Shown one piece after another: positions 12,354-33,018 of a DNA stretch of 37,444 bases (its first letter is position 1; every line of letters starts with the position of its first letter). The position numbers and the translations under genes are program-made. The stretch is from Candidatus Magasanikiibacteriota bacterium (lineage in GTDB: Bacteria > Patescibacteriota > Patescibacteriia > Magasanikbacterales > UBA10146), in contig JACRFU010000075.1 in assembly GCA_016212585.1 (NCBI GenBank), positions 1 through 37,444 of the forward strand, read 5' to 3'. The notes below the pieces were generated by a model. That model did no database searches and was not told the origin of the DNA. It saw nothing but the letters and a program-made list of their open reading frames with translations.

Positions 12354-12370
12354 AAACTATTTTGCATTAA

Positions 12371-13075: not shown

Positions 13076-13090
13076 ATCGTGCTATCAAAA

Positions 13091-13378: not shown

Positions 13379-13402
13379 ATGCTCAATGTTATATCAGTTC
13401 CT

Positions 13403-13431: not shown

Positions 13432-13466
13432 GTGCCTCCAAAAATTGTCAATGGCGTGCGTTTTGT

Positions 13467-13937
13467 TTATTTCACATTCCATTTAAAAACACGCTCGGGA
13501 GCTTCTCCAATATCTCTTATTCTTAATTCAAAATATCTTGGTATGGTATTAAAAGGAGCAAAAAATAATGTTCCGCTCCGGTGATGCCCGCCAGGTCCTG
13601 ACCCAGTCCAGCTCACTGGCTTATACTCGTTGGATTGATCATCCAACAGAATAGATTGTTTTACCAAATCATCGTCCAAATCCACGGTATGGGTACTAAG
13701 ATTGATATCAAATTGTAACGGAACATTTAGCTCTATTTTTGCCGGGGTCACCTCAATATTTACCCCCCTTTGTTCGTCCACACGGCTTTCAAACGCGGCA
13801 TCAAGCGATGCGCTGGCGGCAACATTTGGTCTTGCAGATATTTTTTTTGATGTAAGCGTATTGCGTAAAATCAAAATAATGATTGCCACACTCACCGCCA
13901 TCAACACCACCCAAAAAATCATCGTTCGTGTTTTCAT
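13467..13937 (-). CDS. Membrane-anchored extracytoplasmic protein, unknown function (GPGGHH loop)
   Basis: 156 aa. N-terminal signal anchor (IFWVVLMAVSVAIIILIL), a beta-rich ectodomain, and a WTGSGPGGHHRSG loop. It overlaps the upstream gene by 4 nt. No family was recognised. Confidence 0.6.
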   Translation of the reverse strand: MKTRTMIFWVVLMAVSVAIIILILRNTLTSKKISARPNVAASASLDAAFESRVDEQRGVNIEVTPAKIELNVPLQFDINLSTHTVDLDDDLVKQSILLDDQSNEYKPVSWTGSGPGGHHRSGTLFFAPFNTIPRYFELRIRDIGEAPERVFKWNVK

Positions 13938-14371
13938 AGTATTGATTTCTTAAACATAAACAGCTTGCGAGCAATAAAAATTATTCCTCCTATGTTAAAC
14001 GCAAGTCCAATCCAAAATAACCGTATCTGGTAGTGAGCTATAAAACTCAAGGCTCCGGCGATTCCCAATATCGGAGCAATGTTTGCCAGATAGTGCGCGC
14101 AACAAGATATCATCGCGGCGGTTGAGGTTGTGCCTGATACCGCCAATACTTTCCCAGAATCGCGCCGTTCACGCACGGCGTCTTTTAAAAACATATACAA
14201 ACAGATTTGTATGCCAAAGCCTAAAGCCAAACTAACAATATAGTACCAAAAATCGCCAAATTGTTCTTTAGTGAATCTCCATCCAGAGACAAGAGTTAAA
14301 ATAGAAAAATAAAAAACCAACAACATCACGCTTGCCGCCAATCCGTACAATATTGGTTTGAAATACTTCAT
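13934..14371 (-). CDS. Four-TM membrane protein with an intramembrane SCCAH motif
   Basis: 145 aa with four predicted TMs. The motif AAMISCCAHYLANIAPILG lies at the start of TM3. It overlaps both neighbouring genes by 4 nt. No family was recognised. Confidence 0.6.
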   Translation of the reverse strand: MKYFKPILYGLAASVMLLVFYFSILTLVSGWRFTKEQFGDFWYYIVSLALGFGIQICLYMFLKDAVRERRDSGKVLAVSGTTSTAAMISCCAHYLANIAPILGIAGALSFIAHYQIRLFWIGLAFNIGGIIFIARKLFMFKKSIL

Positions 14372-15051
14372 TTTAACTTCGCCAATTCATCCACGAGTTG
14401 GTTATTATGAATCGCCATTCTTGGATCATCATATACATGCTGGACAATTCCCTCTCTATCTATAATAACATAACTATGCCCGGGCAAAGACCCAAAATGC
14501 ATGGATGATGGCGTGGTGAGCACACCAAAATTATTGGAAACTTGTTTGTCTGTGTCAAACACTACCGTTGCCTTAGCTAATTCCGGCATTTTTTTAACGG
14601 CGCTTTGCCAATCTTTGGCAGAGTCAACCACTATAGATAGGACTACGGTGTCCGCGTTGTTCAATCTGTTGTCGGAAGCGAGTTGGACAATTTGTTCCCA
14701 GCACGCGGGATAACACATTAACCCCTCATTGAAAAAAAGAACGATCTTTTTGCCTTTGAGACTCTCTTTGCTATAGGTTTTGCCATCTTTATCAACAAAT
14801 GCAAAGTCAGGAACGGATTTTCCGACTAAAGCGTCAATACCCGCGGTAGAGGCTTTGCCTCCATTCCCGGAATGATGTCCCGCTATGCCATCTTGCGATT
14901 CTTGCGTTTTAGCAGTAGCAGTATTCTTATTTTCTTTTTCCGCGGCACTGCTCAAAAACCAAATCGCGGCAACTACTATAATGGTAAACGAAGCAATACC
15001 TGCCAGAATAACCGAATTTTCATTCTTGTCGTGGTGTGTCTTTTTGCTCAT
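14368..15051 (-). CDS. Membrane-anchored thioredoxin-fold protein (redoxin/AhpC-TSA-like) with CxxxC spacing
   Basis: 227 aa. N-terminal TM (VILAGIASFTIIVVAAIWFL); GKKIVLFFNEGLMCYPACWEQI, where Cys-Y-P-A-Cys is CxxxC rather than CxxC; and a cis-Pro-region-like LPGHSYVIIDREGIV. The CxxxC plus downstream His resembles the Sco1/SenC pattern, which is inference only. Confidence 0.65.
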   Translation of the reverse strand: MSKKTHHDKNENSVILAGIASFTIIVVAAIWFLSSAAEKENKNTATAKTQESQDGIAGHHSGNGGKASTAGIDALVGKSVPDFAFVDKDGKTYSKESLKGKKIVLFFNEGLMCYPACWEQIVQLASDNRLNNADTVVLSIVVDSAKDWQSAVKKMPELAKATVVFDTDKQVSNNFGVLTTPSSMHFGSLPGHSYVIIDREGIVQHVYDDPRMAIHNNQLVDELAKLK

Positions 15052-15907
15052 ACTTTTCTTTTTTAAATAAGTAAATAGTTTTGGCTATTAAACCGATGAA
15101 CAATAATAAAAACAGTGCCGCCCACGCGTATTCCGGCAAGAGAGTGATGAATCCTCGTACGGAATTAAATAAGTTAGTGAGATATATATTTACGTCAACC
15201 TGCAACGACGATTGCATGGTAAGCCTATTGGAAAATGCGAGGCTCATGGTTACTACAGCCATTACCATGAACATTATGCCTGAAATAAATTCGCCGATTG
15301 TCAAACTAACTTTTACTGTACCCAATGAATACGAAATCGGCTTACGCATACCCATAAATTTCTTTGTTATCGCGCCTTTATCCAGGAAAGAAGCGATAAA
15401 AAACAAAGGGATTACCATGCCAAGCACGTAACTCAATGTATAGAGTACTCCCCAAAAAATCGATCCGGGTAAAGCCGATAACGCTAACACGCCGGCCAAC
15501 ACCGGCGCGCAACAGGTGGTGGCAATTCCGGAAAATACGCCCAACATAAAAACAGAAAATGGATGATGATTCTTGAGCGTCGGACTCACATGAAAGGGCA
15601 AGGTAAAGTGCCTGCCTGTAAGGAGCAACAAACCAAGAATCATCAGAAAAATACTACCAAAAACAAAAATGGTATTATGATTTTTGCTTAATAACTGCCC
15701 AAATGCGGCAGAACCCAACCCCAGAGGCAAAAAAACCAAAAGGATGCCCAAGAAAAAAATAAAAGTCATTACAAAAACTTTTTTGCGCTCCCGAAATATT
15801 GAGCCGAGGTAAGATGGTAACAACACCGTAATACAACACGGCGCGAAAAGCGCCGCCACACCAGCTACAAATGCCGCCACCAATGAGGTGCCAATGAGTA
15901 CATTCAC
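15020..15907 (-). CDS. CcdA/DsbD-like thiol:disulfide transmembrane electron-transfer protein (DsbD_2-type)
   Basis: Polytopic protein with vicinal or intramembrane Cys in TM1 (LFAPCCITVLLPSYLG) and a later TM (TTCCAPVLAGVLALS). The track ORF extends to 16033 but overlaps the DUF2933-like gene by 119 nt and translates a poly-Lys run. An in-frame GTG at 15907, 8 nt after that gene's stop, gives a start right before TM1. The start is uncertain. Confidence 0.7.
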   Translation of the reverse strand: MNVLIGTSLVAAFVAGVAALFAPCCITVLLPSYLGSIFRERKKVFVMTFIFFLGILLVFLPLGLGSAAFGQLLSKNHNTIFVFGSIFLMILGLLLLTGRHFTLPFHVSPTLKNHHPFSVFMLGVFSGIATTCCAPVLAGVLALSALPGSIFWGVLYTLSYVLGMVIPLFFIASFLDKGAITKKFMGMRKPISYSLGTVKVSLTIGEFISGIMFMVMAVVTMSLAFSNRLTMQSSLQVDVNIYLTNLFNSVRGFITLLPEYAWAALFLLLFIGLIAKTIYLFKKEKYEQKDTPRQE

Positions 15908-15914
15908 AAAATTA

Positions 15915-16193
15915 TTATTTGATATCTGTTGATATTTCTTTTTCTTTTTTTTCGCCGCCGGATTTGCAACAACCACCACCCGCGGATTTATTGTCAGATT
16001 GCCCGGAATGTCCATCTTGGCCGTGTCCACCATGCCCCTTCATCATAAAAACATGCAAAAGAGGACATGCGATAACAAAAAGCCACACTAAAGAGTTGCC
16101 CCCTAAATTAGGAAACAATCTTGGCAAAATAATAATGGCGGCTACGACCGCGATACCTATGCCGAGCATAGTGGAAAGTTTTGGAAACTGCAT
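15915..16193 (-). CDS. Small membrane protein resembling DUF2933 (CPLLH-FMM-GHGGHG motif) with a Gly/Cys/Lys-rich tail
   Basis: 92 aa with two TMs. The motif VIACPLLHVFMMKGHGGHGQDGHSG matches my recollection of DUF2933 proteins found in heavy-metal clusters. The tail carries GGGCCKSGG. Confidence 0.6.
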   Translation of the reverse strand: MQFPKLSTMLGIGIAVVAAIIILPRLFPNLGGNSLVWLFVIACPLLHVFMMKGHGGHGQDGHSGQSDNKSAGGGCCKSGGEKKEKEISTDIK

Positions 16194-18906: not shown

Positions 18907-18977
18907 TTTCATTAAAATGTCAAATCTGGTCAAAAAATCTTATCCACAAGTCAAAATTTCATTCGGCGGCAAACCCA

Positions 18978-20030
18978 TTAAGGCAATTGACAAGAGTCCA
19001 CACTTTTATACGCAACATGCCTCATTGAGCAACGTTGATAATAACTATCGACTTTGCACATAGTACCGCTTAATTGAGTAAGTTCAGATGAAATACAGCT
19101 ATTTTCATAAGAACCAAACGCCTTTGAAGTGTCTGTCAAAAAAACAAACAAAAGAAGAGACGCAATTATGATTGATGACATACCAAGCAAAAATCCTCTG
19201 CCAAACAATCCAAACCTCGGAATATAATTGTCATCGGACAGCCTATTGACTCGTTCATCTATGACTGAACTAAAAAAAGACAATGCGAGTCCCGCGCGTA
19301 TTATATTTTTTTCTTCTCTTTGAGCCACTTTAAAAATTGCCCGCGCCAGAATTGATTTGTTCAAAAAATTATTCGTCGCCAGCTCATCCGCGGCCAGTTC
19401 GGAAAATGTTATGTATTTTTTTATAATTGTCTTTATTCCCGGCACAAAAAACAATACGCGTTGAAAATATTTCAAGACAAAAAGCCTTAATGGATCATGA
19501 GAAATAAGATGGTGCCGCTCGTGCAAAAGCACAGCGCTTAATTCAGCATATTCTAAAATATCAGTCAAGCCATTTGCAATACAAATTTTTGATCGTACAA
19601 TACCAAAACAAAAAACTATAGGCTCTTTACTTCTTATCTCCACAACCCTGCCCGGCGCGATACCAAGACTATCAAGCGATCTTTTGAGTTTTGAAGAATG
19701 AGTTGTTTTGGATAATTTTAAATAATCTATTGAGTATTTTCTTGTGCGTATCATCAAACTTACCAAGGTATACAACGCAAACCCCAAAAACGAAGTGGCA
19801 AAGATCCCCAACGCCCCCAAAGCCGCAAAAAGATAAGGATGTGAAGCAAGCGAAGCCATTTGAGAACATCCGCACGTCGTTTTAATTTTGTGTGTTATCA
19901 TTGGCAGATACAACCAAATTTTCTCGTAAATTTTAAAAAAAGCCATAGTAAGCAGGCCAAAAATAATACCAATTAAAAAAATGGCTTGTATAAAAGCTTT
20001 ACCTGTCTTTTGAGCAAATGGCGAGCGCAT
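18978..20030 (-). CDS. BlaR1/MecR1-like M56-family membrane metalloprotease/signal transducer. It lacks a penicillin-binding sensor domain and has a short Cys-rich C-terminal ectodomain.
   Basis: 350 aa. HExxH motif (LLHERHHLISHDP) within a Peptidase_M56-like region and multiple TMs. The first loop contains TTCGCSQMASLASH. After the last TM there are only ~55 aa, with 4 Cys (YENSCISSELTQLSGTMCKVDSYYQRCSMRHVAYKSVDSCQLP). Its start is 1 nt after the BlaI-like gene stop. Confidence 0.8.
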   Translation of the reverse strand: MRSPFAQKTGKAFIQAIFLIGIIFGLLTMAFFKIYEKIWLYLPMITHKIKTTCGCSQMASLASHPYLFAALGALGIFATSFLGFALYTLVSLMIRTRKYSIDYLKLSKTTHSSKLKRSLDSLGIAPGRVVEIRSKEPIVFCFGIVRSKICIANGLTDILEYAELSAVLLHERHHLISHDPLRLFVLKYFQRVLFFVPGIKTIIKKYITFSELAADELATNNFLNKSILARAIFKVAQREEKNIIRAGLALSFFSSVIDERVNRLSDDNYIPRFGLFGRGFLLGMSSIIIASLLLFVFLTDTSKAFGSYENSCISSELTQLSGTMCKVDSYYQRCSMRHVAYKSVDSCQLP

Positions 20031-20515: not shown

Positions 20516-21634
20516 ATGCCAAAAAAAATCCTCATGCTCTCGCTCTCAGCAGGAAGCGGGCATGTCCGCGCGGCTGAAAGTCTTCGTGAAGAAGCACACA
20601 ACTCGTATCCAGACGCGATTGTTGAACATCGTGATATTATTGAATTTGTACATAAACCTCTCAAACTGATATACCGGGATTTTTATGTTTTTATGACCAA
20701 AAATGCCCCTCTCGTATGGGGGTACCTTTACAAAACCGCAAACTCGCCTATGGTGCGGGAAACGATCCACGCGACCTCACACATTCAAACACTTCTGGCA
20801 GCTGGTCTTGCGCGCTTTATAGATGTTTTCAAACCAGACATGATTGTGTGCACACATTTTGTATGCGCTGAAATCGCAACTTCCATACTCAAGGAGCGCG
20901 GTATGGCAACACCGGTAGCAATGGTGATTACCGATTATCAAATACATCATCTTTGGATGGTTGAGGGAGTGTATCATTATTTTGTGGCGACACAGACAAT
21001 AAAAAAAGATTTAATTGCCGCCGGAGTTGCTGCCGAGCGTATTACCGCAAGCGGTATACCAGTATCCACCGCAGTCATTGCTACTGAACGATCACCGCAT
21101 TTATATGAACATTATGTGGTAGAACAAGGGCGTCCTATAGTGCTCGCGCTCTCCGGCGGGTTTGGTTTGCAAGATACCTCAACAATTGTTCAAACGCTCA
21201 TGGCAAGCAAATTGCCACTTCAAATATGCGCCGTAGCTGGCTCCAACAAAGCACTTAAGGAAAAATTAGAAGCGCTTCAATCACCATCACATATTACGGT
21301 GCGTATATATGATTTTGTGCGTGCCATACATGAACTCTACGCGCTCGCGGATGTTGTTATCAGTAAAGCAGGGGGACTGACGGTAACCGAATGCATCACG
21401 CGCGGAGTGCCACTCATTATCACCGAACCTCTGCCCGGACAAGAAGCCGCAAACGCGAATTTCTTGCAGACACACAAGGCCGCGCTTCAAATCAAAAAAA
21501 CTCCTGATGTGCTCAATAAAATTCATCGCATTCTCACCAACGCGGCACTTCGCGGTGAACTCACAAAAAACATGAAAAAAATAGCGCGTCCTTATGCGGC
21601 TCGCGCGATTCTTGAGCAAGTCATCAAAGAGTAA
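20516..21634 (+). CDS. MGDG-synthase-family (UgtP-like, GT28) diacylglycerol glycosyltransferase
   Basis: 372 aa. N-terminal ILMLSLSAGSGHVRAAESL, an MGDG_synth-type motif, and a C-terminal GT-B half with ISKAGGLTVTECITRGVPLII..PLPGQEAANANFL. Confidence 0.85.
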   Translation: MPKKILMLSLSAGSGHVRAAESLREEAHNSYPDAIVEHRDIIEFVHKPLKLIYRDFYVFMTKNAPLVWGYLYKTANSPMVRETIHATSHIQTLLAAGLARFIDVFKPDMIVCTHFVCAEIATSILKERGMATPVAMVITDYQIHHLWMVEGVYHYFVATQTIKKDLIAAGVAAERITASGIPVSTAVIATERSPHLYEHYVVEQGRPIVLALSGGFGLQDTSTIVQTLMASKLPLQICAVAGSNKALKEKLEALQSPSHITVRIYDFVRAIHELYALADVVISKAGGLTVTECITRGVPLIITEPLPGQEAANANFLQTHKAALQIKKTPDVLNKIHRILTNAALRGELTKNMKKIARPYAARAILEQVIKE

Positions 21635-21643
21635 CCCTTGCTG

Positions 21644-21805
21644 CATAAGACTTGTCCCCAAATAGGCTTTCGTTACGAAATTGCCAAATTTTGAGGCAAA
21701 ATTGTTGAATAAATTTTGAGGTTTAACAGCGGTTAAGCTGAAAAATTTTGAAATAATTTTGACCGAAATTTGGCAATTGCAGCAGAAATGCTATTGGGGG
21801 ACAAG
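21644..21805. repeat. Long-hairpin intergenic repeat (LHR), subfamily B, copy B1
   Basis: It has the same invariant core as the A copies (TTGTTGAATAAATTTTGAGGTTTAA-CAGCGG-TTAAGCTGAAAAATTTTGAAATAATTTT). Its arms differ from the A copies but are mutually complementary: CTTGTCCCCAAATAG / CTATTGGGGGACAAG, and AATTGCCAAATTT / AAATTTGGCAATT. It lies between convergent gene ends. Confidence 0.85.
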
Positions 21806-21834
21806 GATATAGATGCGCGAGATTGCGTGAACAT

Positions 21835-21869
21835 CAAAAAACAACTCCGCTGGCCGCGGAGCTGTTTTT
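21835..21869 (-). terminator. Rho-independent (bidirectional-type) terminator after the 470-aa gene
   Basis: The minus strand reads CAGCTCCGC-GGCCA-GCGGAGTTG, a 9-bp stem with one G-U, followed by TTTTTT. The plus strand has the mirror A-run/T-run but an A-C mismatch. Confidence 0.6.
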
Positions 21870-21920: not shown

Positions 21921-23333
21921 TTACGGAGCGATATTTTGCTGACCGCCTCCAATACCAAATTGGCTGAAGTCAACGGAATTGATTTGCTTGAATTGTTGAG
22001 GACCTTGTTCCCATGGGCGCGATTCTTGCGCTCCAGAGAGCTCTTGGCGCGCGGCATCAAACTGCTGACGCAAATCCTCAAGTTCTTGCAAAGCAGACAT
22101 CACCGCTTCTTCATCCAATGGTTTTGTCTTTAATAGAGCAAATATCTCTTGTCCTTTTGCTTGTGATTGCGCGAGTACATCTTCCAGCGCGGAGGTATCA
22201 ACTTTACTGCGTTTTAGAGATTTAATGGTTCTCTGCGCGTCTGCGATACCGCGTTTGAAATCAGAGGTGAAACGACCCAAATTGCTCATCGTCTGTATAA
22301 TACGATCGTTCTGCCACACATCCTGCATGGCGCCAAAGAATCTGTCTTCAAGCGCGCTAAACGCGCCTTCTGAATCACCAGACTTAATTTTTGAATCAGC
22401 TTCATCGCGCACTGCCTTGAGTCCGCTAATAGCAGTTTCAAACGCGTTGTATTCATCGGATAAATCAATACCTTGTTTTGATAACTTCGCGACAATTGAT
22501 TTATCTCTCTTTAATGCTGATTCTAATCGCTTAATTTCGCTGTTAAGTTGTTTGATGGTTTGCGGCCAACGAGCAAGCATCTCTAACTGCTGACGGCAAC
22601 CGTCAAGAGACTGCATGGCCTCTTGCAAATCCTCTATACCCGCTTCTTGAACAGCTTCAAAGGTTTCCGCGGTTTTGACAGCCGCAATGACAGTTTTTAC
22701 CTTTGTAAGATTATCAGAACATTCGGTAGGTACAACAATACCTTGTTTGGTAAGTTTTGTAATTTGCTTATCAAACATATTGATACCTTGCTCCATGCCT
22801 TTCATACCTTTCTTCATTTGTGCTAACTGCTGTTTTTCCATTTGTTTCTGGCGAGCTTCTTGTTGTTGTTGCTGTTTTTCTGACATGCCATTATCACCAT
22901 TTTCTTGGTCATTGCCCATGCCTTGACCTTGGTCGCCGCCAAAACCCTGCTGGTTAGGACCGCTAAAACCTTGTCTTTGGTTAGTATCCATTTGTTGATT
23001 AGGACCGCCAAAACCTCTTGAGTTTTGCATTTGATTTGTACCCTGCTGATTGCCCATGCCTTGACCTTGGTCACCGCCAAAACCCTGCTGGTTAGGACCG
23101 CCAGAACCCGGTTGCATGCCTGGTTGACCGCCTGGTGGAGGTGACATTGGAGCATTCATAGGAGCAGGTGAACCACCCACAGGAGAAGGAGCACTGCCTT
23201 GTATGCTCTGAGCAAGCAAAAGCATTGGGAAGCCTACTCCCAACACCGTAAACGCCAAAAGTGAAAACACAACAGCCGACACATGGGGGTAGTGACGATG
23301 ATGTATGATCCCCGGCTTGCAAAATAGTTGCAT
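21921..23333 (-). CDS. Secreted protein with a Pro/Gly/Gln/Met-rich low-complexity repeat region followed by a long alpha-helical (coiled-coil-like) region
   Basis: 470 aa. Hydrophobic signal/anchor (VVFSLLAFTVLGVGFPMLLLAQS). The internal repeat GPNQQGFGGDQGQGMGN occurs twice, along with related GFGGPNQQ units. There is a QQQQQEARQKQMEKQQLAQMKKGMKGMEQG tract, then ~300 aa of heptad-like helical sequence. No family was recognised. Confidence 0.65.
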   Translation of the reverse strand: MQLFCKPGIIHHRHYPHVSAVVFSLLAFTVLGVGFPMLLLAQSIQGSAPSPVGGSPAPMNAPMSPPPGGQPGMQPGSGGPNQQGFGGDQGQGMGNQQGTNQMQNSRGFGGPNQQMDTNQRQGFSGPNQQGFGGDQGQGMGNDQENGDNGMSEKQQQQQEARQKQMEKQQLAQMKKGMKGMEQGINMFDKQITKLTKQGIVVPTECSDNLTKVKTVIAAVKTAETFEAVQEAGIEDLQEAMQSLDGCRQQLEMLARWPQTIKQLNSEIKRLESALKRDKSIVAKLSKQGIDLSDEYNAFETAISGLKAVRDEADSKIKSGDSEGAFSALEDRFFGAMQDVWQNDRIIQTMSNLGRFTSDFKRGIADAQRTIKSLKRSKVDTSALEDVLAQSQAKGQEIFALLKTKPLDEEAVMSALQELEDLRQQFDAARQELSGAQESRPWEQGPQQFKQINSVDFSQFGIGGGQQNIAP

Positions 23334-25194: not shown

Positions 25195-25668
25195 TTACTT
25201 ATACTGCGAGGAATAATAATCATACAGCGGATTAACCGTCGCTTTGAGCAGATAATTGAACACCAAACGAGAAATACCATACGCGGAAAGCACAATCGCA
25301 ATGCCAATGACGCCATTGGTAATCAAACCTTTGGCGGTTTTGATTTTGTCCTCTTCTCCACCGGCGGTAAGCCACAAAAAGCCCGCGTACACCACCAGTC
25401 CCACAAACACCATACCGAGCAACGAGAGTGAAACATAAATAATATACGCTACTGTCTGGCGCGGGTCTTGATTTTTAAGCCCCGTGCTTTTGCCCGCGGT
25501 GTCTAATTGTTTGTTAATATCCGCGGCGGCGTTGGTTTGCGGTTCTTGCGCGAGCTGATAGGCGGCGCGCGCTTGCGGCGCTTGCAGTAGTAATGCAAAA
25601 ACAGCTCCAACCACCCATAAAAGAAAAGGGCTGGCGGCAAAAAAATGTTTGCGTAATGATGTTTGCAT
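25195..25668 (-). CDS. TrbC/VirB2-like (CPR T4SS_pilin-type) small membrane protein, paralog 1 of 10
   Basis: I prefer the ATG at 25668 (MQTSLRKHFFAASPFLLWVVGAVFALLLQAPQARA signal), which avoids a 73-nt overlap with paralog 2. Core: LLGMVFVGLVVYAGFLWLTAGGEEDKIKTAKGLITNGVIGIAIVLSAY. Confidence 0.75.
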   Translation of the reverse strand: MQTSLRKHFFAASPFLLWVVGAVFALLLQAPQARAAYQLAQEPQTNAAADINKQLDTAGKSTGLKNQDPRQTVAYIIYVSLSLLGMVFVGLVVYAGFLWLTAGGEEDKIKTAKGLITNGVIGIAIVLSAYGISRLVFNYLLKATVNPLYDYYSSQYK

Positions 25669-25700
25669 ATAACGCGTTGAAAATCTTCTTTGAAAATTAA

Positions 25701-26120
25701 TTAAGGCTTCACGCCCGGTGTTGAGGATGCCGGCTGTGTGAGAGATGACTGCACAATAGCTCCAACAATCCATTTGGTGATACCAAAAGACGATAACACA
25801 ATAATCAGCCCAATAATAGCGTTGCGAAGATATTTTATGGCGGTTTTTATCTGTTCTTCATCCCCGCCGGCGGTAAGGTACTGATAGCCCGCAAAGACCG
25901 TAAAAGCCAAAAATAAGACGCCCAATATCCCGAGCGACGCGGATATAATGTTGCCTACTGTCTGGGCAAGCGAGGTATCATCCCCAGCAGTGTTATACTT
26001 TGCGTTTTTCCCCACCCCTTGAAGTAAACTTTGCGCGGTTTCCGGCGTTTCCGCGTCAAGGCGTAACGGAAAAACTAACAACAAACTAAACGCAAGAAAA
26101 GCTAATAAAGTAAATTTCAT
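25701..26120 (-). CDS. TrbC/VirB2-like small membrane protein, paralog 2 of 10
   Basis: 139 aa. Signal peptide (LLAFLAFSLLLVFPLRLDA). Core: ILGVLFLAFTVFAGYQYLTAGGDEEQIKTAIKYLRNAIIGLIIVLSSF. Confidence 0.75.
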   Translation of the reverse strand: MKFTLLAFLAFSLLLVFPLRLDAETPETAQSLLQGVGKNAKYNTAGDDTSLAQTVGNIISASLGILGVLFLAFTVFAGYQYLTAGGDEEQIKTAIKYLRNAIIGLIIVLSSFGITKWIVGAIVQSSLTQPASSTPGVKP

Positions 26121-26212
26121 ATCAACAATATTTGAATAAGATTCAAAATAATCTTATGGATACCACATTGAGAAACCGCATTAAGAATTCTTTAATGATG
26201 CATCTTCCATGA

Positions 26213-26635
26213 TTACTTAGCTGACGGGCTTGCCGTGGTTGTTGTCGCGTTGGTGAGCCTTGTTACGATAAAGTTAGTCAGCACATACGCCGCGAGCACC
26301 ACCGCCATGCCAATGGTCGCCATAATGATAATATCTTTTGCTTTTTTGGCCTGTGTCTCGTCTCCGCGCGCGATCATCCAAATATACCCCCCATAGACGG
26401 TTAAAATTAAAAATATAACTCCCACGAGCGTCAAAGCGATATTAATAATGCCGCCAACCTGCTTTTCAAAAGCGCCCTGTTCAAGTTTGCCTGTGCCGCC
26501 ATATACGCCGCTTCCAACTTTTTCCAATCGTCCTTGAAGCGTAGGAGGAGGATCAGCTGCAAATACAGGAGACACTGTCCACACAACGCTATATACAACA
26601 AAAAAAACAAACAGGAGAGAGAAAACATATTTCAT
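26213..26635 (-). CDS. TrbC/VirB2-like small membrane protein, paralog 3 of 10
   Basis: I prefer the start at Met13 of the track ORF (MKYVFSLLFVFFVVYSVVWTVSPVFA signal). Core: LVGVIFLILTVYGGYIWMIARGDETQAKKAKDIIIMATIGMAVVLAAY. Confidence 0.75.
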   Translation of the reverse strand: MKYVFSLLFVFFVVYSVVWTVSPVFAADPPPTLQGRLEKVGSGVYGGTGKLEQGAFEKQVGGIINIALTLVGVIFLILTVYGGYIWMIARGDETQAKKAKDIIIMATIGMAVVLAAYVLTNFIVTRLTNATTTTASPSAK

Positions 26636-26698
26636 AATTATGTTTACTATATTGAATTTAAATAGACTCATTTTAAAGATGTTGGAAATGTTTGTGCA

Positions 26699-27100
26699 CT
26701 AACCAGGAGCATTAAATACTTGGGTTGCCACCAGGTAGGTGGCGGTGTAAGAAAGCAAAATAATCACCATGCCAATGGTCGCCATAATGATAATATCTTT
26801 TGCTTTTTTGGCCTGTGTCTCGTCTCCGCGCGCCGTCATCCACAAAAACCCGCCATAGAGCATCAAAAGAAAAAACGCGACGCCGACAAAAGAAAGTGCC
26901 ACTTGAATAATTTGTCCAACTCTTTTTTCAGGATCGCTTGAAACATCCAACCCCGCGCCTCCAGAGCCAGCTGCTTGTTTAAATTGTTTGTCCGCGTCGC
27001 CAAAGTTAAGCGCGGCGCGCGCTGGAAATACGCTTCCCAACCACACTGCCGGCACCGCGGTCGCGATCATTATACTCGCAATGCTTTTATTCAAACGCAT
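26699..27100 (-). CDS. TrbC/VirB2-like small membrane protein, paralog 4 of 10
   Basis: 133 aa. Signal (IMIATAVPAVWLGSVFPARA). Core: FVGVAFFLLMLYGGFLWMTARGDETQAKKAKDIIIMATIGMVIILLSY. Confidence 0.78.
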   Translation of the reverse strand: MRLNKSIASIMIATAVPAVWLGSVFPARAALNFGDADKQFKQAAGSGGAGLDVSSDPEKRVGQIIQVALSFVGVAFFLLMLYGGFLWMTARGDETQAKKAKDIIIMATIGMVIILLSYTATYLVATQVFNAPG

Positions 27101-27104
27101 AAAA

Positions 27105-27662
27105 TTATTTAACCGCAGTTACCACATTACTAAACACGAATGAAGTAATAATACCCGCGGCGGCAACAATAATAATGCCAATGACCGCGTCTATGATAAT
27201 ATCTCTTGCTTTTTTGGCCTGCGTCTCGTCTCCGCGCGCCATCATCCACAAAAACCCGCCATAGAGCATCAACAGGAAAAACGCGATGCCTACGAGTGAA
27301 AGCACCACTCCAATAATCTTTCCGGTAATTCCCGCGACGGTTCCGCTTGTTTTTATTCCCGCGGCTCCGGCTGTTGCGTTGAGACCGTAGTTTCCTCCGC
27401 TAATTTCTCCTGTTTTACTGCTCTCAGTTTTATTTTGTGAACACTCACTAAACACACTGCATGGCTGATTAAGTTTTAAATTTCCGCTACATTGACTAAT
27501 AGTGGCATTGTCAAGACAAAAATTATTGCTATTCACACAACATCCTTCGTTTGTTGCATAAACCAACTGAGGAAAAGTTACCAAACTTAAAATATTTACC
27601 ACTGAAAAAACTAAGGCTGAAAAAACTAAAATGTTGCGCTTCATAAGTAAATTTGTTTCCAT
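27105..27662 (-). CDS. TrbC/VirB2-like membrane protein with an N-terminal six-Cys module, paralog 5 of 10
   Basis: 185 aa. A signal is followed by NEGCCVNSNNFCLDNATISQCSGNLKLNQPCSVFSECSQ. Core: LVGIAFFLLMLYGGFLWMMARGDETQAKKARDIIIDAVIGIIIVAAAG. An alternative start exists at Met7 (27644). Confidence 0.75.
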   Translation of the reverse strand: METNLLMKRNILVFSALVFSVVNILSLVTFPQLVYATNEGCCVNSNNFCLDNATISQCSGNLKLNQPCSVFSECSQNKTESSKTGEISGGNYGLNATAGAAGIKTSGTVAGITGKIIGVVLSLVGIAFFLLMLYGGFLWMMARGDETQAKKARDIIIDAVIGIIIVAAAGIITSFVFSNVVTAVK

Positions 27663-27722
27663 AATAATTTTCTTCTATCTGATTGCGTGTGCAATAAAAC
27701 ACAAGAAAGTTATTATTCAAAC

Positions 27723-27767
27723 CCTCTCGCCAGAGCGCGTCATGCGTGCGCGCGCCCCGGCAAGAGG
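27723..27767 (-). terminator. GC-rich hairpin in the 181-bp gap that splits the pilin array (possible terminator or attenuator)
   Basis: The minus-strand stem CCTCTTGCC / GGCGAGAGG is 9 bp with one G-U. It encloses a second GCGCG/CGCGC stem and is followed only by a short TTT. This is the only long intergenic gap inside the array. Confidence 0.35.
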
Positions 27768-27843
27768 CAGATATATCTGAAAAATTCCGCGCGTTTGTTA
27801 TGAATCAATATCGCGCTCTAACAACTTTAATTTTATTTTTATC

Positions 27844-28272
27844 CTAGGATGTGGCCTTTACCAAACTGTCTATGACGAACTTGGCGATGGCGTACGCGGA
27901 CAATATAATCGCCAAACCAATCACGCCGGCGATAATGCGTTTTTTTGCTTCCCCTGTTTTTTCTTCATTTCCTCCGGCAGTCATCCATTCAAAACCGCCA
28001 ATAAGGATAATGACAACAGCCACAATGCCGAGCAAACCTAGCGCGACGTTGATGATGTTGCCAACGGTTACACGAATATCTTTATTGCCCAAACCTGTTG
28101 ATCCACTTAGACTTTCACTATTAGAGTTTCCAATACCTTCAATGCCCAGCGCCTTGTTGCCGTTAGTAGTATCAATAGGAACTGGCGTATACGCCGATGC
28201 CAACGCAGGAACCAACATTGTCCCCAATAAGCTCGCGGTTGCTAAAAATGAAATAATTTTTTTCTTTGTCAT
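27844..28272 (-). CDS. TrbC/VirB2-like small membrane protein, paralog 6 of 10
   Basis: I prefer the ATG at 28272 (MTKKKIISFLATASLLGTMLVPALASA). The track's TTG-initiated MKGGEN extension is the translated Shine-Dalgarno region (AAGGGGGTGAAAAC-ATG). Core: LLGIVAVVIILIGGFEWMTAGGNEEKTGEAKKRIIAGVIGLAIILSAY. Confidence 0.8.
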   Translation of the reverse strand: MTKKKIISFLATASLLGTMLVPALASAYTPVPIDTTNGNKALGIEGIGNSNSESLSGSTGLGNKDIRVTVGNIINVALGLLGIVAVVIILIGGFEWMTAGGNEEKTGEAKKRIIAGVIGLAIILSAYAIAKFVIDSLVKATS

Positions 28273-28320
28273 GTTTTCACCCCCTTTCAAATAGTAAAGA
28301 TAATTTGCTTGTCAAAAAAT

Positions 28321-28710
28321 TTATGTGGTAGCGCTCACCAAACTATTAATAACAAACTTGGCGATGGCGTACGCGGACAATATAATCGCCAAACCAATCA
28401 CGCCGGCGATAATGCGCTTTTTTGCTTCTCCTGTTTTATCTTCATTGCCTCCGGCAGTCATCCACTCAAAACCGCCAATCAGGATGATGACAACGGCCAC
28501 AATGCCGAGCAAACCCAATGCCACGTTGATGATGTTCCCAACGGTAACGCGAATGTCTTTTTGCCCCAAGCCGGTATACACGCCATAATTGACACCCAAC
28601 GCGTCTCCTTGAGAAATTGGCGGCGGCACAGGGTCAGCAAACACAGGAGCCGCCATCAAAAGCGTTAAAGCTCCTGTGGCAAACGCTGCTGCAATTTTTT
28701 TTGTATTCAT
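28321..28710 (-). CDS. TrbC/VirB2-like small membrane protein, paralog 7 of 10
   Basis: 129 aa. Signal (AAAFATGALTLLMAAPVFA). The C-terminal ~80 aa are almost identical to paralog 6 (…DIRVTVGNIINVALGLLGIVAVVIILIGGFEWMTAGGNEDKTGEAKKRIIAGVIGLAIILSAYAIAKFVI…). Confidence 0.8.
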   Translation of the reverse strand: MNTKKIAAAFATGALTLLMAAPVFADPVPPPISQGDALGVNYGVYTGLGQKDIRVTVGNIINVALGLLGIVAVVIILIGGFEWMTAGGNEDKTGEAKKRIIAGVIGLAIILSAYAIAKFVINSLVSATT

Positions 28711-28747
28711 AAAGAATTTAAATTAAGTAATAAATTTCTAAAATGTT

Positions 28748-29170
28748 TTATAACTTTCCCCCAAGCGCGTCAAAAACAAACTTAAGCAAAATATAACTAG
28801 TCAAAATTACGATAATGCCTATGCCTGACCACATAAACACATCTCTTCCTTTCTTTATTTTATCAGGACTGCCTCCAGAGGTCAACCACAAAAAACCGCC
28901 ATACACAAACATAATAAGCGCGATGGAGCCAATTATCCCCAGCACCGGCTTGATCACCCGCTCCCCCACAATGACAAATATGTCCGTTGTGCCCAATGGA
29001 TTGTCCAAATCAACAGTTGCCTGTCCGGCGGCGCGCGCAAAATGCACTGCGCCAACTATGCCTAAAAACAAAGCGCATAACCCAGCGCAGAGAATAAATT
29101 TTCTTTGCAGTACGAAATAATTTTTTGAGGCAATCGTGCTGTTTTGTAAATTCTTGGAGTGCATTTTCAT
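28748..29170 (-). CDS. TrbC/VirB2-like small membrane protein, paralog 8 of 10 (start uncertain)
   Basis: 140 aa. Core: IIGSIALIMFVYGGFLWLTSGGSPDKIKKGRDVFMWSGIGIIVILTSY. The first codons (MKMHSKNLQ) lie inside a copy of the 43-nt repeat, so the start codon may be repeat-derived or a downstream non-ATG start may be used. Confidence 0.7.
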   Translation of the reverse strand: MKMHSKNLQNSTIASKNYFVLQRKFILCAGLCALFLGIVGAVHFARAAGQATVDLDNPLGTTDIFVIVGERVIKPVLGIIGSIALIMFVYGGFLWLTSGGSPDKIKKGRDVFMWSGIGIIVILTSYILLKFVFDALGGKL

Positions 29171-29188
29171 AAGGTGATGTCCATAGGC
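29146..29188. repeat. Solo copy of the 43-nt arm of the foldback element
   Basis: GTAAATTCTTGGAGTGCATTTTCATAAGGTGATGTCCATAGGC matches 1604-1646 at 40/43 positions in the same orientation. It overlaps the 5' end of pilin paralog 8. Confidence 0.75.
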
Positions 29189-29194
29189 TTCATA

Positions 29195-29842
29195 TTATTG
29201 CAATGCTGAAAAAACAAATTGCACCAGTATATAGCTGGCAAAAATTACCACAAGCCCCAACACTGTCCAGAGCATTATCTTTGCGGACGAACGCGTGCGT
29301 TCTTCATTGCCTGCCGCGGTCATCCACATTATACCGGCGTAGATGAGCAACACGAGCGCGATTGAACCCACCACAGAGAGTGCGGACTTAATTATTGTGC
29401 CAATAAACCCTTGTACCGAATAATTGCCTAATGGATCAAACAACGCGCCAATTTTAAAAGTCCCGCCCCCCACAGGCTTAAAGCTTGGAGGAGTACCTAT
29501 TTTCCCTAAAGTGCCCGCACCTCCTCCTGTTTTTTTCTTTGCACTGGTGCTTTTGCATTCTGAATATAAACTGCATTTACTGTTTGCCTTACTGTCAAAA
29601 TTTTCTTCCCCTCCAAGCGCGTCCGCACACTTGGCATCAACCTCCGTCTTATTATCATAATTTGCCTTTATTTCCGCGCACGCAATTTCTCCTTGCTTGG
29701 ATTTTGGAGGGAAACAACAAATTGTCTCTTGTTTGTTTTCACTCTTATTTTCAGCAAGCACAGAAAACGGTGATATTAAAGACAATACTGAAACAACAAA
29801 AATGAGTGAGATCGTGTTAAAAAAATGTTTATTAATCCGCAT
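29195..29842 (-). CDS. TrbC/VirB2-like membrane protein with an N-terminal Cys-rich module, paralog 9 of 10
   Basis: 215 aa. A signal is followed by ETICCFPPKSKQGEIACAEIKANYDNKTEVDAKCADALGGEENFDSKANSKCSLYSECKS. Core: VVGSIALVLLIYAGIMWMTAAGNEERTRSSAKIMLWTVLGLVVIFASY. Confidence 0.75.
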   Translation of the reverse strand: MRINKHFFNTISLIFVVSVLSLISPFSVLAENKSENKQETICCFPPKSKQGEIACAEIKANYDNKTEVDAKCADALGGEENFDSKANSKCSLYSECKSTSAKKKTGGGAGTLGKIGTPPSFKPVGGGTFKIGALFDPLGNYSVQGFIGTIIKSALSVVGSIALVLLIYAGIMWMTAAGNEERTRSSAKIMLWTVLGLVVIFASYILVQFVFSALQ

Positions 29843-29845
29843 ACT

Positions 29846-30391
29846 CTATTTTTTATCTGTTGAATCCGGCAATTTAACCTCCAAAAGATTATTTTGATTT
29901 TGGTTTTGCGCGGGGACCAAACCTTGAATGACAAACCGCACCAACATCTGTGCGCCAAAGGTAATGAGAAGACCAATGACCGCTCCCAAAATAGCGTCCC
30001 GCCCTTTTTTGACCATTTCCGGACTGCCCGCGGAAATAAGGAGCAAGACTCCGCCATAAATAAAGAAAAGAAACGCCGCGGCGCCGATGATAGCAAATGT
30101 GGCGTTTGAATAATTTACAAAAAGCGCAAGAAACGCGCCAACGTCGCGGCATCCGCCTCCCGGCGTGCCTTCACTGTCCGCGCATTTTGGAATGAATAAA
30201 CTTTTTCCCGGACCGCCTTCCGGACTTCCCAAATTAGTTGGCGCGCCAAAAACCGCAGGTTTTGACGCAGAGGTCGCCTGAACTAAAATAACAGCTAAAG
30301 CATCATTTGCGGAAAATAAAAAAACTCCACCCAAAACAAAATTCAACACAACACTCGCCATGAAAACAAATTGTTTTATTGTATCCCTCAT
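29846..30391 (-). CDS. TrbC/VirB2-like membrane protein, paralog 10 of 10 (first in transcription order)
   Basis: 181 aa. Signal/anchor, a two-Cys loop (IPKCADSEGTPGGGCRD), core IIGAAAFLFFIYGGVLLLISAGSPEMVKKGRDAILGAVIGLLITFGAQ, and a Gln/Asn-rich tail. Confidence 0.7.
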   Translation of the reverse strand: MRDTIKQFVFMASVVLNFVLGGVFLFSANDALAVILVQATSASKPAVFGAPTNLGSPEGGPGKSLFIPKCADSEGTPGGGCRDVGAFLALFVNYSNATFAIIGAAAFLFFIYGGVLLLISAGSPEMVKKGRDAILGAVIGLLITFGAQMLVRFVIQGLVPAQNQNQNNLLEVKLPDSTDKK

Positions 30392-30406
30392 AATCCCACA
30401 TTTTTA

Positions 30407-30567
30407 GGGTCTGTCGCCAAATGCGCTTTTGCAGTGAAATGCGCAGATTTCGAGACAAAATTGTTGAATAAATTTTGAGGTTTAATTGCAAATTAAGCTG
30501 AAAAATTTTGAAATAATTTTGTCCGAAAGATGCGCATTGCAACCAAAATGGCATTCGGCGACAGACC
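30407..30567. repeat. Long-hairpin intergenic repeat (LHR), subfamily A, copy A2 (complete)
   Basis: The termini GGGTCTGTCGCCAAATGC and GCATTCGGCGACAGACC are complementary (one A-C). The inner arms AATGCGCAGATTTCGAGACAAAATT / AATTTTGTCCGAAAGATGCGCATT are complementary. The invariant core is at 30461-30513. It fills the gap between the SBP gene stop (30571) and the pilin paralog 10 start (30391). Confidence 0.9.
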
Positions 30568-30570
30568 ATT

Positions 30571-31965
30571 TTAAGGCCCAATTGTTTGCCCTACGCGCGC
30601 GGCAGCCTGCTGGAGCGCTTTTTTATATGCGTCCGGGTCGTTCAATGCCGCTTCGCTGGTTACTCCATCTATCATCTGCAAAAACGCTGTGTCCGCGGCG
30701 GCCGCGTCTCGCCCCTTATACCAACTCTTGGCGGTCAACGCGCTCTCTGCAAACGGGCCAATGACCGCGTCGTCTTTTTGCCCAGCCACCAGCGCGCGCA
30801 ACGCGGACGGCTTTTTTGTTTTGTTCAAGTAACTTTGCACCTGTTTTTCTTGCGCGGCAAATTGTATAAAATCCCACGCCTCATTTTGATGCGCGCTTTT
30901 CTTTGCAACGGTCTCAACCCAATAACTTGCAAAATTCACCGGAACATCAGGATTCAACTGTGGCAAAGGCGTTACTGAATAATTCAATTTTGGCGCGCGC
31001 GCCTCAACCTGCGGGATATTATATGAATAGCCAAAATAAAATCCTGCTACACCGCGCGTAAACGCGTCCAGAGAATTAGGCATGGTTTTATTCCATGTAT
31101 AGCCTTTCTTTGTTGTGTTTGCAAAATCGGTGTAAAAACGCAATGCCTGCTCGCCCGGGCCAACCTCTTGAGTGTAGCCTTGAGGAATCGCTTGAAATTC
31201 CGGTGTGCCGTCGTCAAGTGCCATTGTGGCGCCGCCCTGCATCATTAAAACAGACAAAATATCCGCCGCACGCGCCACATTGGCACTCCCGCCTATTGCC
31301 GATCCCGCTTGCACCACCTTATTATCCGTATTGACTTTAGCCATTGAAATAACATTATCCAAAAATTGATCCCATGTTTTGGGCGGCGTGCCAATGCCGG
31401 CTTTGTCCAGCATATCTTTGTTGTAAAAAAGCGCGAGCGTATCCACCGCAAATGGCAATCCCCAAATTTTTTCTTCACTTGTTGCGGCGTCTCTGCGCAC
31501 CACATCCCCTGCCACAACGCCAACAAAATTATCTTTTATTTGTTTAATTGTTGGAGACGGAATCGTTTTGGTGGTTACCACCAACTGTTTGCTGATGGTC
31601 CCCTCTATGCTCTGGAAAGTTGATTTAACAGAAGCGGGCATAGGCGCGATTTTGCTCTGATACTTGCCAACCCATGTATTTTGAATTGAAAATAAATCTG
31701 GTCCGCGGTCTTCCGCGAGCGCGTTGATGAGTTCTTTTTCAAATTCGTCCGGCAAAAGTTTTCTGTAGGTAATTTTTATATGCGGGTGCAGTTGTTGATA
31801 CGCGCCAATAATTTCCGCCATGCTGTCTGAATCGTCAAACACGCGCCAATAGTTAAGCTCCACCGGCTTAATAGCGTCTTGTTGTGCTTGCGACAAACCT
31901 TTACACCCCAACCCTGAAGTGAGTAAAAAAACCGTGAGAAAAGAAAAAATAAATATACGCCGCAT
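30571..31965 (-). CDS. ABC-transporter extracellular solute-binding protein, family 1 (sugar-type), probable lipoprotein
   Basis: I prefer the ATG at 31965 (MRRIFIFSFLTVFLLTSGLGCKG, lipobox-like), 1 nt after the galU stop. Family pattern: NYWRVFDD, DLFSIQNTWVGKY, WGLPFAVDTLALFYNKDMLDKAGI..PPKTWDQF. No permease or ATPase genes occur in the window. Confidence 0.8.
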   Translation of the reverse strand: MRRIFIFSFLTVFLLTSGLGCKGLSQAQQDAIKPVELNYWRVFDDSDSMAEIIGAYQQLHPHIKITYRKLLPDEFEKELINALAEDRGPDLFSIQNTWVGKYQSKIAPMPASVKSTFQSIEGTISKQLVVTTKTIPSPTIKQIKDNFVGVVAGDVVRRDAATSEEKIWGLPFAVDTLALFYNKDMLDKAGIGTPPKTWDQFLDNVISMAKVNTDNKVVQAGSAIGGSANVARAADILSVLMMQGGATMALDDGTPEFQAIPQGYTQEVGPGEQALRFYTDFANTTKKGYTWNKTMPNSLDAFTRGVAGFYFGYSYNIPQVEARAPKLNYSVTPLPQLNPDVPVNFASYWVETVAKKSAHQNEAWDFIQFAAQEKQVQSYLNKTKKPSALRALVAGQKDDAVIGPFAESALTAKSWYKGRDAAAADTAFLQMIDGVTSEAALNDPDAYKKALQQAAARVGQTIGP

Positions 31966-31966
31966 A

Positions 31967-32860
31967 TTATATTTTAAGTGAGCGTAGATAATCTTTGATG
32001 CCTTTTGATAAATCCGGATGGCGGAGCGCAAAATCAACCTGCGCTTTGATGTACTCCAATTTATTGCCGGTATCATAATATCGTCCATTTTGTATCTCCG
32101 CCGCGTACATTGGATAGCCGGATTTCATGAGTTGCGTAATCGCATCTACAAGCCAGATCTCTCCGCCCCTGCCCGGCGCGAGCTCTTGCAAATAAGGAAA
32201 AATCTTGCCGGGCAAAATATACGCGCCATGAGCCGCTAGATTTGATGGTGCGTCTTTGGGGTCTGGTTTCTCCATAATTGATTTGATGCAAAACACGCTC
32301 TGTTCTCCTTTTATTTTTTCCACATCCGCAATACCGTAACGCGCGACATCTTCACGATTTTTGATCCGCACCGCTGAAATAACTCCTCCGCCATATTTTT
32401 CATAGACTTTCATCATCTGCGAAAGGCGCCCTGGTTCCGCGTAAATAAGTTCGTCGCCCCAGAGCACTACAAAATCTTCACTCTTGTCTATAAGATGCCG
32501 CGCGCAATACACCGGCGTGCCGTTGCCATAAGGGCCTTTTTGGCGCACATACACAAAATTTGCCATTTCTGCGATGCGCTGGACTTCTCGCAACTGTTTT
32601 ATCTTGTCGTCTGCTTTAAGCCGCGCCTCCAGCTCAAACGAATGATCAAAATGATCTTCTATAGAGCGCTTATTGTAGCCCGTTATGATAATTATGTCCG
32701 TAATCCCGGCCTCCACCGCCTCTTCCACCACATACTGAATAATTGGCTTATCTATAAGAGGAAGCATTTCTTTCGGCATTGCTTTGGTGGCAGGCAAAAA
32801 GCGCGTGCCCAAACCCGCCGCGGGTATAATTGCTTTGGTTATTTTTCTTTTTTCCGCCAT
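31967..32860 (-). CDS. galU: UTP-glucose-1-phosphate uridylyltransferase
   Basis: I prefer the ATG at 32860 (MAEKRKITKAIIPAAGLGTRFLPATKAMPKEMLPLIDKPIIQYVVEEA). Later motifs include VLWGDEL and the EKP region (MEKPDPKDAPSNLAAHGAYIL). The track's 40-aa N-terminal extension is a translation of repeat B2. Confidence 0.9.
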   Translation of the reverse strand: MAEKRKITKAIIPAAGLGTRFLPATKAMPKEMLPLIDKPIIQYVVEEAVEAGITDIIIITGYNKRSIEDHFDHSFELEARLKADDKIKQLREVQRIAEMANFVYVRQKGPYGNGTPVYCARHLIDKSEDFVVLWGDELIYAEPGRLSQMMKVYEKYGGGVISAVRIKNREDVARYGIADVEKIKGEQSVFCIKSIMEKPDPKDAPSNLAAHGAYILPGKIFPYLQELAPGRGGEIWLVDAITQLMKSGYPMYAAEIQNGRYYDTGNKLEYIKAQVDFALRHPDLSKGIKDYLRSLKI

Positions 32861-33018
32861 AAGACTTGTCCCTAAATACGATTTCGTTACGAAATTGCCA
32901 AATTTTGAGGCAAAATTGTTGAATAAATTTTGAGGTTTAACAGTGATTAAGCTGAAAAATTTTGAAATGATTTTGACCAAAATTTGGCAATTGCAGTAGA
33001 AATGGTATTTTGGGACAA
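32858..33018. repeat. Long-hairpin intergenic repeat (LHR), subfamily B, copy B2
   Basis: The left end CATAAGACTTGTCCCTAAATAC... is shared with B1 and includes the complement of the galU ATG. The right end is ...GTATTTTGGGACAA. Arms AATTGCCAAATTT / AAATTTGGCAATT. Invariant core with loop CAGTGA. Confidence 0.85.

Follow-up and report, generated by a model that had tools for sequence, protein, structure and literature searches.

The bcr1 repeat of the Bacillus cereus group is a non-coding, intergenic element of about 155 bp that is flanked by 5-bp direct repeats, carries compensatory changes preserving its fold and has no known transposase, and its distribution is not conserved between related strains (Delihas 2011, PMC3184786). 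In REPINs the long hairpin is the replicative unit, two-sided compensatory changes are common and a single-stranded folded intermediate has been proposed (PMC3116915). The Tn3-derived TIMEs have conserved 38-bp Tn3-type ends and a less conserved core, usually occur as one copy per genome and insert into AT-rich DNA with 5-bp duplications (PMC4133298). Here we describe a hairpin repeat of about 163 bp that is present in five copies in a 37,444-nt stretch of contig JACRFU010000075.1, which was analysed as a whole and is referred to as the window. As far as these searches show, the repeat belongs to a previously undescribed family of elements resembling MITEs (miniature inverted-repeat transposable elements), and we favour, with some reservation, the reading that these small, non-coding and non-autonomous elements of Magasanikbacteria-type Patescibacteria are propagated via a folded single strand.

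As a functional analogue, bcr1 comes closest, with matching length, 5-bp repeats and compensation, although the two were compared by description alone; the present element differs from it in forming a single long hairpin, in its patescibacterial host and in a centre and loops that stay invariant while the termini drift. The last feature is also the reverse of the RAYT-mobilised REPINs, where the 16-mer REP ends are invariant and the central spacer is variable. REPINs moreover are not known to make target duplications, which are present here alongside an invariant centre and varying ends. With TIMEs the element has the 5-bp AT-rich duplication in common, but neither the 38-bp Tn3-type ends nor the low copy number: only the outer 11 nt of its A-type ends resemble the Tn3 repeat, and five copies lie within 37 kb of the window and at least five within the 45-kb contig JACRAK010000032.1. 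Classical MITEs (Correia/NEMIS, ERIC, RUP) are, like the element, small and non-coding, with inverted-repeat ends, duplications and stable predicted RNA hairpins. Two further systems work as folded single strands, namely integron attC sites and the ends of IS200/IS605, for both of which structure and a few unpaired bases outweigh the stem sequence. In attC sites the end motifs (R''/R') are conserved around a variable centre, and the sites stand in cassette arrays beside the integron integrase gene intI; the present repeat shows the opposite conservation pattern, its copies in the window are 2.4-21 kb apart, and 13 external copies have no integrase alongside. IS200/IS605 elements insert without a duplication, 3' of a fixed short target of 4-5 nt, whereas here the left flanks vary from copy to copy and the direct repeats are of varying sequence. 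A bacterial mobile hairpin with compensation is not in itself new, such changes having been reported for bcr1 and REPINs; what is unusual is the combination of a fixed apex and fixed loops with drifting termini, and the host group. The original prediction for this DNA, made by a model from the letters alone, had described the conservation as the opposite of the usual MITE pattern, and in this it was right about the fixed apex and varying termini but overstated the novelty.

All five copies in the window lie on the + strand, at the places predicted and with the arm motifs as quoted there, and are accompanied by one 30-nt remnant (Table 1). The element measures 161-169 bp, and each full copy folds over its whole length as one long imperfect hairpin. 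The predicted RNA hairpins are very stable, with minimum free energies (MFE) of -66.7 kcal/mol for B1 (z -7.9), -78.6 kcal/mol for A2 (z -11.1) and -64.7 kcal/mol for B2 (z -9.7), the z-scores being relative to dinucleotide shuffles. The arms are complementary from the outermost bases, so that the element carries terminal inverted repeats (TIRs), with 97.9% of the cells of the outer helix paired; the end motifs are GGGTCTGTCGCCRAATG and AGACTTGTCCCCAAATA. The core 21-mer of the apex occurs five times in the window, compared with 0.02 expected. As in MITEs, the size is small (under about 400 bp) and there is no coding capacity of its own: the overlapping open reading frames (ORFs; e.g. 21287..21661, 30303..30581, 30486..30764 and 31967..32980) run into the flanks or represent the N-terminal extension of a neighbouring gene. 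The copies are spread among housekeeping genes at a density of about one per 7 kb. A1 is located about 20 nt upstream of a xerC-like integrase gene (161-1159), and B1 follows the MGDG-synthase stop codon (gene 20516-21634) and precedes the terminator of this gene. The called MGDG-synthase gene starts later than the ORF as drawn. The remnant shows 87% identity to the right end of A1, which is below nhmmer significance.

Table 1. Copies of the hairpin repeat and associated features in the 37,444-nt window.
Feature	Position	Strand	Description
Copy A1	1-138	+	5' end cut by window edge; A-type arms, inner stem TACGCATAGTTCG/CGAACTATGCGTA
Solo remnant, A-type right end (AGTCAAAATTTCATTCGGCGGCAAACCCAT)	18949-18978	+	30 nt; abuts stop codon of M56-peptidase gene
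Copy B1	21648-21808	+	Full-length; B-type arms (AGACTTGTCCCC...GGGGGACAAGGAT), CAG-type loop
B1 apex module	21699-21760	+	AAATTGTTGAATAAATTTTGAGGTTTAA-loop-TTAAGCTGAAAAATTTTGAAAYAATTTTG; GAAU/UGA internal loop, tandem GA/GA loop, two fixed wobble pairs
Bidirectional intrinsic terminator (context, not element)	21845-21861	.	Downstream of B1
Copy A2	30407-30568	+	Full-length; between T4SS-pilin-like gene and solute-binding-protein (SBP) gene
Copy B2	32862-33022	+	Full-length; between NTP-transferase gene and AAA/DUF4143 gene
Copy A3	37304-37444	+	3' end cut by window edge; A-type arms and CAG-type loop

The repeat is very probably a mobile, non-autonomous element, a property that the original prediction had not recognised. 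With the element ends fixed by alignment columns under a uniform rule, perfect 5-bp direct repeats were found to flank 7 of 14 full copies (TTTTA, TATAA, TAAAA, ATAAT, ATTAT, CATAT and TTAAA), compared with 4.4% of mismatched flank pairs (binomial P~8e-7). A2, for instance, has TTTTA on either side (30402-30406 and 30569-73), with the SBP stop codon inside the right-hand unit; the arrangement is explained by insertion at TAAAA overlapping this stop codon. The same site is empty in L045 and L046, related loci in which the gap between the SBP and pilin-like genes is 8 and 16 nt, compared with 179 nt in the window, and it is likewise empty in L041-L044; SBP orthologues are 85-87% identical at the protein level. 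A profile search of the 14-21-kb syntenic regions of L041-L044 gave no copy, yet the genome that these come from (LCLH01) has copies elsewhere. The B2 site is empty in L045, with flanks recognisable on both sides. For B1 the empty site was found in L028 and L029, where the MGDG-synthase stop codon directly abuts a conserved bidirectional terminator, the same one that lies downstream of B1 in the window. This terminator is common to the convergent genes 20516-21634 (+) and 21921-23333 (-) and is conserved in L027-L029, the three loci whose MGDG-synthase orthologues show 71-75% protein identity. MITE-like insertion is thus indicated by the duplications and the empty orthologous sites, and the element is, as expected for MITEs, dispersed, multi-copy and present or absent at orthologous sites. 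The insertions are in AT-rich intergenic sites and often touch stop or start codons. Likenesses to A-type arms seen by eye at L027 2135-2180 and at window positions 21809-21835 (GGGTCTGCG...GTAACGA; GATGCGCG..TTGCGTGAAC) were rejected as decayed remnants, as nhmmer gave no support; these spacer likenesses beside the B1 site may reflect coincidence or an old eroded insertion.

The same observations bear on the idea of a non-mobile, multi-copy family of stand-alone non-coding RNA genes or of a protein-binding palindrome, which we regard as scarcely credible. Covariation with conserved loops, described below, would fit such a family, but target duplications, empty orthologous sites and truncated copies (a left-half-only form in L006, L019 and L020) would not, nor would the lack of an own promoter or terminator in a scan of B1 and of any Rfam match; the reading is largely refuted by the empty sites together with the duplications. 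In the comparison with Rfam 15 only two tRNAs reached the gathering threshold in the window and the element matched no family, a permissive threshold yielding only generic long-hairpin (miRNA precursor) noise far below gathering scores.

External copies were recovered by scanning genome and metagenome collections with the exact, invariant apex 21-mer TTAAGCTGAAAAATTTTGAAA, a procedure by which relatives with a divergent apex would be missed. It led to 12 further distinct copies from Magasanikbacteria-type metagenome-assembled genomes (MAGs) and metagenomes, and hence to 17 distinct copies in total. Genuine matches were restricted to Candidatus Magasanikbacteria MAGs (DOQH01, JACROI01, LCLH01), one Azambacteria-labelled MAG, to which contig JACRAK010000032.1 belongs, and groundwater-type metagenome contigs. 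As the protein orthologues of window genes in Magasanikbacteria show 85-87% identity, the window can be assigned to a Magasanikbacteria-like patescibacterium. The element is the sole DNA common to the window and the external copy loci: A1 and L011 4150-4295 are 99.3% identical with different flanks, A3 and L005 2890-3031 are 97.2% identical with unrelated flanks, and near-identical copies (97-99%) occur in MAGs of differing GC content. Viral contigs gave no match to the apex motif, and matches to the end motif in them were single, unpaired chance matches without similarity to the family. Short-read contigs of the same strain (the end of L026; contig P0121, 2032 bp) stop exactly at copies, and assemblies of this genome are thus broken up by the repeat; the window itself starts (1) and ends (37444) inside element copies. 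At L010 a partial, inverted right-half fragment (6621-6687) lies directly beside a full copy (6712-6875), which suggests nested or adjacent insertions. The copy at L011 4154-4322, 99% identical to A1, lies between a relB-like antitoxin and a yafQ-like toxin gene and splits this toxin-antitoxin operon, with gaps of 0-3 nt to the genes.

Covariation was analysed in an alignment of the 17 distinct copies, for which RNAalifold gave a structure of 57 pairs. Two-sided changes with pairing kept were observed at 25 of the 57 pairs. Overall, 98.1% of stem cells are paired, as opposed to 34-57% when the partner was slid by 1-3 columns, and the covariation score of 0.288 compares with at most 0.068 in these slid controls; none of 500 shuffles reached the observed double-changed pairs, double-changed cells, paired cells or covariation score. 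Some pairs occur in three Watson-Crick types (38:139 as UA/GC/AU, 40:137 as GC/CG/UA), and the supposedly conserved inner region covaries too, as at pair 60:117 (GC/GU/AU). The predicted compensation of several arm substitutions on the opposite arm is thereby confirmed, including the swap of the terminal G-C pair to C-G between B1 and B2, which corresponds to alignment pair 21:155. Compensation holds and grows with the 17 copies instead of failing as copies are added, which would have spoken against it. Several individual copies do contain uncompensated mismatches, for example A16.C160 in A2, A.G in B1 and T.T in B2. G.U intermediates bridge alternative Watson-Crick pairs, e.g. at 31:147 (AU 9, GU 5, GC 2), and G.U states often recur in more than one copy; each of the 10 A.C cells, by contrast, is a singleton. 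Leaving aside the two fixed apex wobbles, the arms contain 24 G.U cells versus 9 A.C cells (10 A.C over all pairs), an excess that is suggestive rather than conclusive because the counts by site are similar.

Conservation along the hairpin is distributed differently from pairing. The mean pairwise identity is 75-79% in the outer arms and 75-80% in the inner arms; the left half of the apex, which was not used in the database search, reaches 96%, and the right half 100%, for the external copies partly by construction since the exact 21-mer stems from that half. In the five window copies, which were found independently of the 21-mer scan, the apex is 98-100% conserved versus 69-81% in the arms. 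The terminal nucleotides vary among subfamilies (GGG.., AGA.., AGG..), and conservation is far higher at the apex than at the termini, as predicted. Along the whole stem, unpaired internal-loop bases are near-invariant and more conserved than paired bases: G22C23 opposite T153G154 is kept in 15-16 of 16 copies, G33A34 opposite G143C144A145 forms a near-invariant internal loop, and the same holds for GAAU opposite UGA and for the tandem GA/GA loop. The apex helix contains the wobble U78.G100 in 17/17 copies and G76.U102 in 12, with A-U in the other 5. Covarying pairs (20:156, 21:155 and 27:149) stand directly beside conserved loops. Covarying stems with sequence-conserved loops are the signature expected for a nucleic acid that is recognised in folded form, and near-invariant loops amid covarying pairs support the selection on a folded strand with sequence-specific recognition that had been proposed from the few copies in the window. 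A site for IHF in the apex was checked by eye only and gave no exact consensus match.

The two strands are not equivalent in this fold. In all 14 full copies the sense strand forms the more stable fold of the two, with RNA and with DNA parameters alike; the mean difference is about -15 kcal/mol (RNA) and -5.2 kcal/mol (DNA), and the advantage persists in 13 of the 14 when the apex is swapped for a tetraloop. This asymmetry is suggestive of a function of one folded single strand, RNA and single-stranded DNA (ssDNA) not being told apart by it. The sense strand coincides with the strand of negative GC skew in 14 of 18 cases. This replication-strand bias is suggestive but was set aside, since the cases lack independence and IS608-type elements would lead one to expect the reverse direction. 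The roughly threefold larger sense-strand advantage with RNA parameters would be in line with a SINE-like (short interspersed nuclear element) retro-element, in which a reverse transcriptase would recognise the sense RNA hairpin at its apex and loops and copy it into AT-rich targets that had been nicked, as would loops that are conserved while stems covary, as in functional RNAs, and termini without sequence conservation. Target-primed reverse transcription does not typically leave a duplication of constant 5-bp length, however, the element has no poly-A or other 3' tail, no reverse transcriptase was found among the neighbouring proteins scanned and no internal promoter was detected in the scan of B1, and we consider such a retro-element very improbable. 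We know of no bacterial precedent for it.

An aberrant copy at L013 4241-4406 in contig JACRAK010000032.1 shows that one arm can be copied from the other. In this copy the apex is inverted, the right inner arm is the exact complement of the left inner arm, with a private GAGAT/ATCTC variant included, the normal asymmetric loops are erased, and the type of the outer arms does not fit that of the inner arms. Hairpin-templated template switching combined with recombination between subfamilies would leave such a footprint. Such recombination, which had been suspected from A3, is real, as the CAG loop is joined to A-type arms in A3, L005 and L013a, the same arms carry another loop in L010, and L013 4241-4406 is a chimera. 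A copy-the-other-arm mechanism, named in the original prediction as a process that would mimic covariation, does occur, but it was seen in 1 of about 18 loci recovered and cannot explain the conserved mismatches and loops; the conserved loops of all other copies argue that arm copying is not the general cause of the complementarity.

These data also bear on the main rival explanation, which we judge rather unlikely: a conventional TIR MITE that is mobilised as double-stranded DNA by a DDE transposase, perhaps one of the Tn3 family, and whose hairpin would be without a role, with ends that covary to fit one transposase and inner arms made complementary via template switching or gene conversion. 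The event at L013, with GAGAT/ATCTC on both arms and an inverted apex, is of the kind that this explanation invokes, but tract copying would erase the conserved mismatches and loops that lie beside covarying pairs. The fixed 5-bp AT-rich target duplication is that reported for the Tn3-derived TIMEs, and the outer 11 nt of the A-type ends, GGGTCTGTCGC, match the Tn3 inverted repeat at 10 of 11 positions (shuffle p 0.01-0.04); B-type ends are unlike the same repeat (p 0.74), and the similarity, being weak and confined to 11 nt, serves as a lead only. Five copies in 37 kb are at odds with the transposition immunity of Tn3-type elements and with TIMEs, which tend to be single-copy. Terminal nucleotides that vary among subfamilies around an invariant centre argue against this explanation as well, the strand asymmetry of the fold is left unexplained at the double-stranded level, and no transposase was found among the proteins of the window or among the neighbours of external copies scanned.

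The Pfam scans took in about 30 proteins of the window together with 17 encoded next to external copies and revealed no transposase, reverse transcriptase or HUH protein, and no RAYT or Y1 protein either. Neither a transposase nor an integrase is located alongside the 13 external copies, whose neighbours are housekeeping genes (infC, rplT, alaS, smpB, PPDK) and also a relB/yafQ-like pair. No cognate autonomous insertion sequence was noticed in the window, the fetched loci or the viral contigs, in which no dedicated end search was made. The xerC-like integrase 20 nt from A1, the sole recombinase found, was rejected as a partner, as no such gene lies beside other copies, and a 1102-aa ORF beside the L011 copy, considered as a Tn3 transposase, had no Pfam match and was not identifiable as such.

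The gene context is of further relevance for a possible function at the host loci, i.e. a domesticated cis-acting RNA element (transcript stabiliser, RNase III site or terminator-like insulator) maintained by the host at each locus. The RNA hairpins are very stable, G.U pairs are tolerated on one strand, copies lie 0-20 nt from gene ends and B1 is positioned in a 3' untranslated region upstream of a terminator; precedents have been proposed in the literature for ERIC, Correia and bcr1. The orientation to flanking genes is mixed, however, and roughly half of the copies are antisense and would be transcribed as the weaker form. At B1, the only copy scanned, no sigma-70-type promoter was found on either strand, and the scan of that region showed that the element has no U-tract or terminator of its own. 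Close relatives moreover lack the element at the orthologous positions, which means that it is not required at any locus. Compensated differences are common to dispersed copies, so they are older than the insertions and presumably go back to lineages of source ('master') copies. Selection on the fold would accordingly act on propagation and not on a host function at each locus. A cis-acting role of this kind is accordingly improbable, and the protein-binding or RNA function that had been predicted is not indicated at the level of the individual host locus.

Taken together, we favour propagation of the element via a folded single strand. A trans-acting mobilisation machinery would recognise the folded sense strand, as ssDNA or RNA, through the conserved apex and loop nucleotides and would act at the base of the stem, so that the terminal sequences would be free to drift while they pair. 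The fold would be selected for the propagation of the element and not for a host function at each locus, and recombination between copies as well as occasional hairpin-templated arm copying would also shape the family. Several points weigh against this proposal. The 17 copies are few and mutually related, and cell counts are not independent events; counted by site, G.U (about 10-12, depending on the two apex wobble sites) and A.C (10) are similar. Retrieval of the external copies with an exact 21-mer inflates the conservation of the apex, and arm-to-arm copying with inversion of the apex occurs, as seen at L013 4241-4406. Four B-type copies are without a clear target duplication, and duplications of a fixed 5 bp are what DDE transposases typically leave, enzymes that bind the ends as double strands and need no hairpin. 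Finally, neither a mobilising enzyme nor an autonomous parent was found among the sequences scanned, and the mechanism is inferred.

Some other features of the window were noted. A second, unrelated long-hairpin repeat is located at 1455-1648 between tRNA-Arg and tRNA-His; its 33-nt terminal arms are 97% complementary, and its RNA MFE is -105.7 kcal/mol (z -12.5). As an 87%-identical copy is present on a Magasanikbacteria metagenome contig (L019 2122-2307) and a solo end at 29158-29192, it probably represents another MITE family. About ten T4SS-pilin-like paralogues (Pfam PF18895) stand in tandem at 25195-30391, where DNA segments are repeated as well; the array is syntenic in L041-L046. A metal/redox cluster on the - strand (5205-16033) comprises two HMA-domain P-type ATPases, a DsbD-like protein, cupredoxin-domain proteins and a peroxiredoxin. 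The 470-aa ORF 21921-23333 contains internal direct repeats of 65 and 24 nt, the former 92% identical, at 22906-23109 and gave only weak Pfam matches, Metal_resist (E=0.0016) and DUF2096_N (E=0.0094), both below gathering cut-offs. The whole window shows negative GC skew, and the - strand carries most of its genes.

Patescibacteria (candidate phyla radiation, CPR) have very small genomes, and their mobile repeats are little described; a full-text literature search combining MITEs with the candidate phyla radiation found nothing related. The element matters practically for binning and assembly because it is dense, 97-99% identical across MAGs and breaks short-read assemblies. The difference between a fixed apex and covarying termini separates what the machinery reads from where the element ends, and the conserved apex and loops provide a concrete bait, in sequence and structure, for finding the enzyme. 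A stronger form of the proposal, to which we assign a low probability, is that of a structure-addressed element: the machinery would read a folded single strand by its invariant apex, tandem G.A loop and conserved bulges and would cut wherever the stem has its base, so that the ends would need no fixed sequence. If this is true and the strand is RNA, the family would be a bacterial SINE-like element; if the strand is ssDNA, it would represent a new hairpin-dependent transposition system that leaves 5-bp duplications, in the genome-reduced Patescibacteria.

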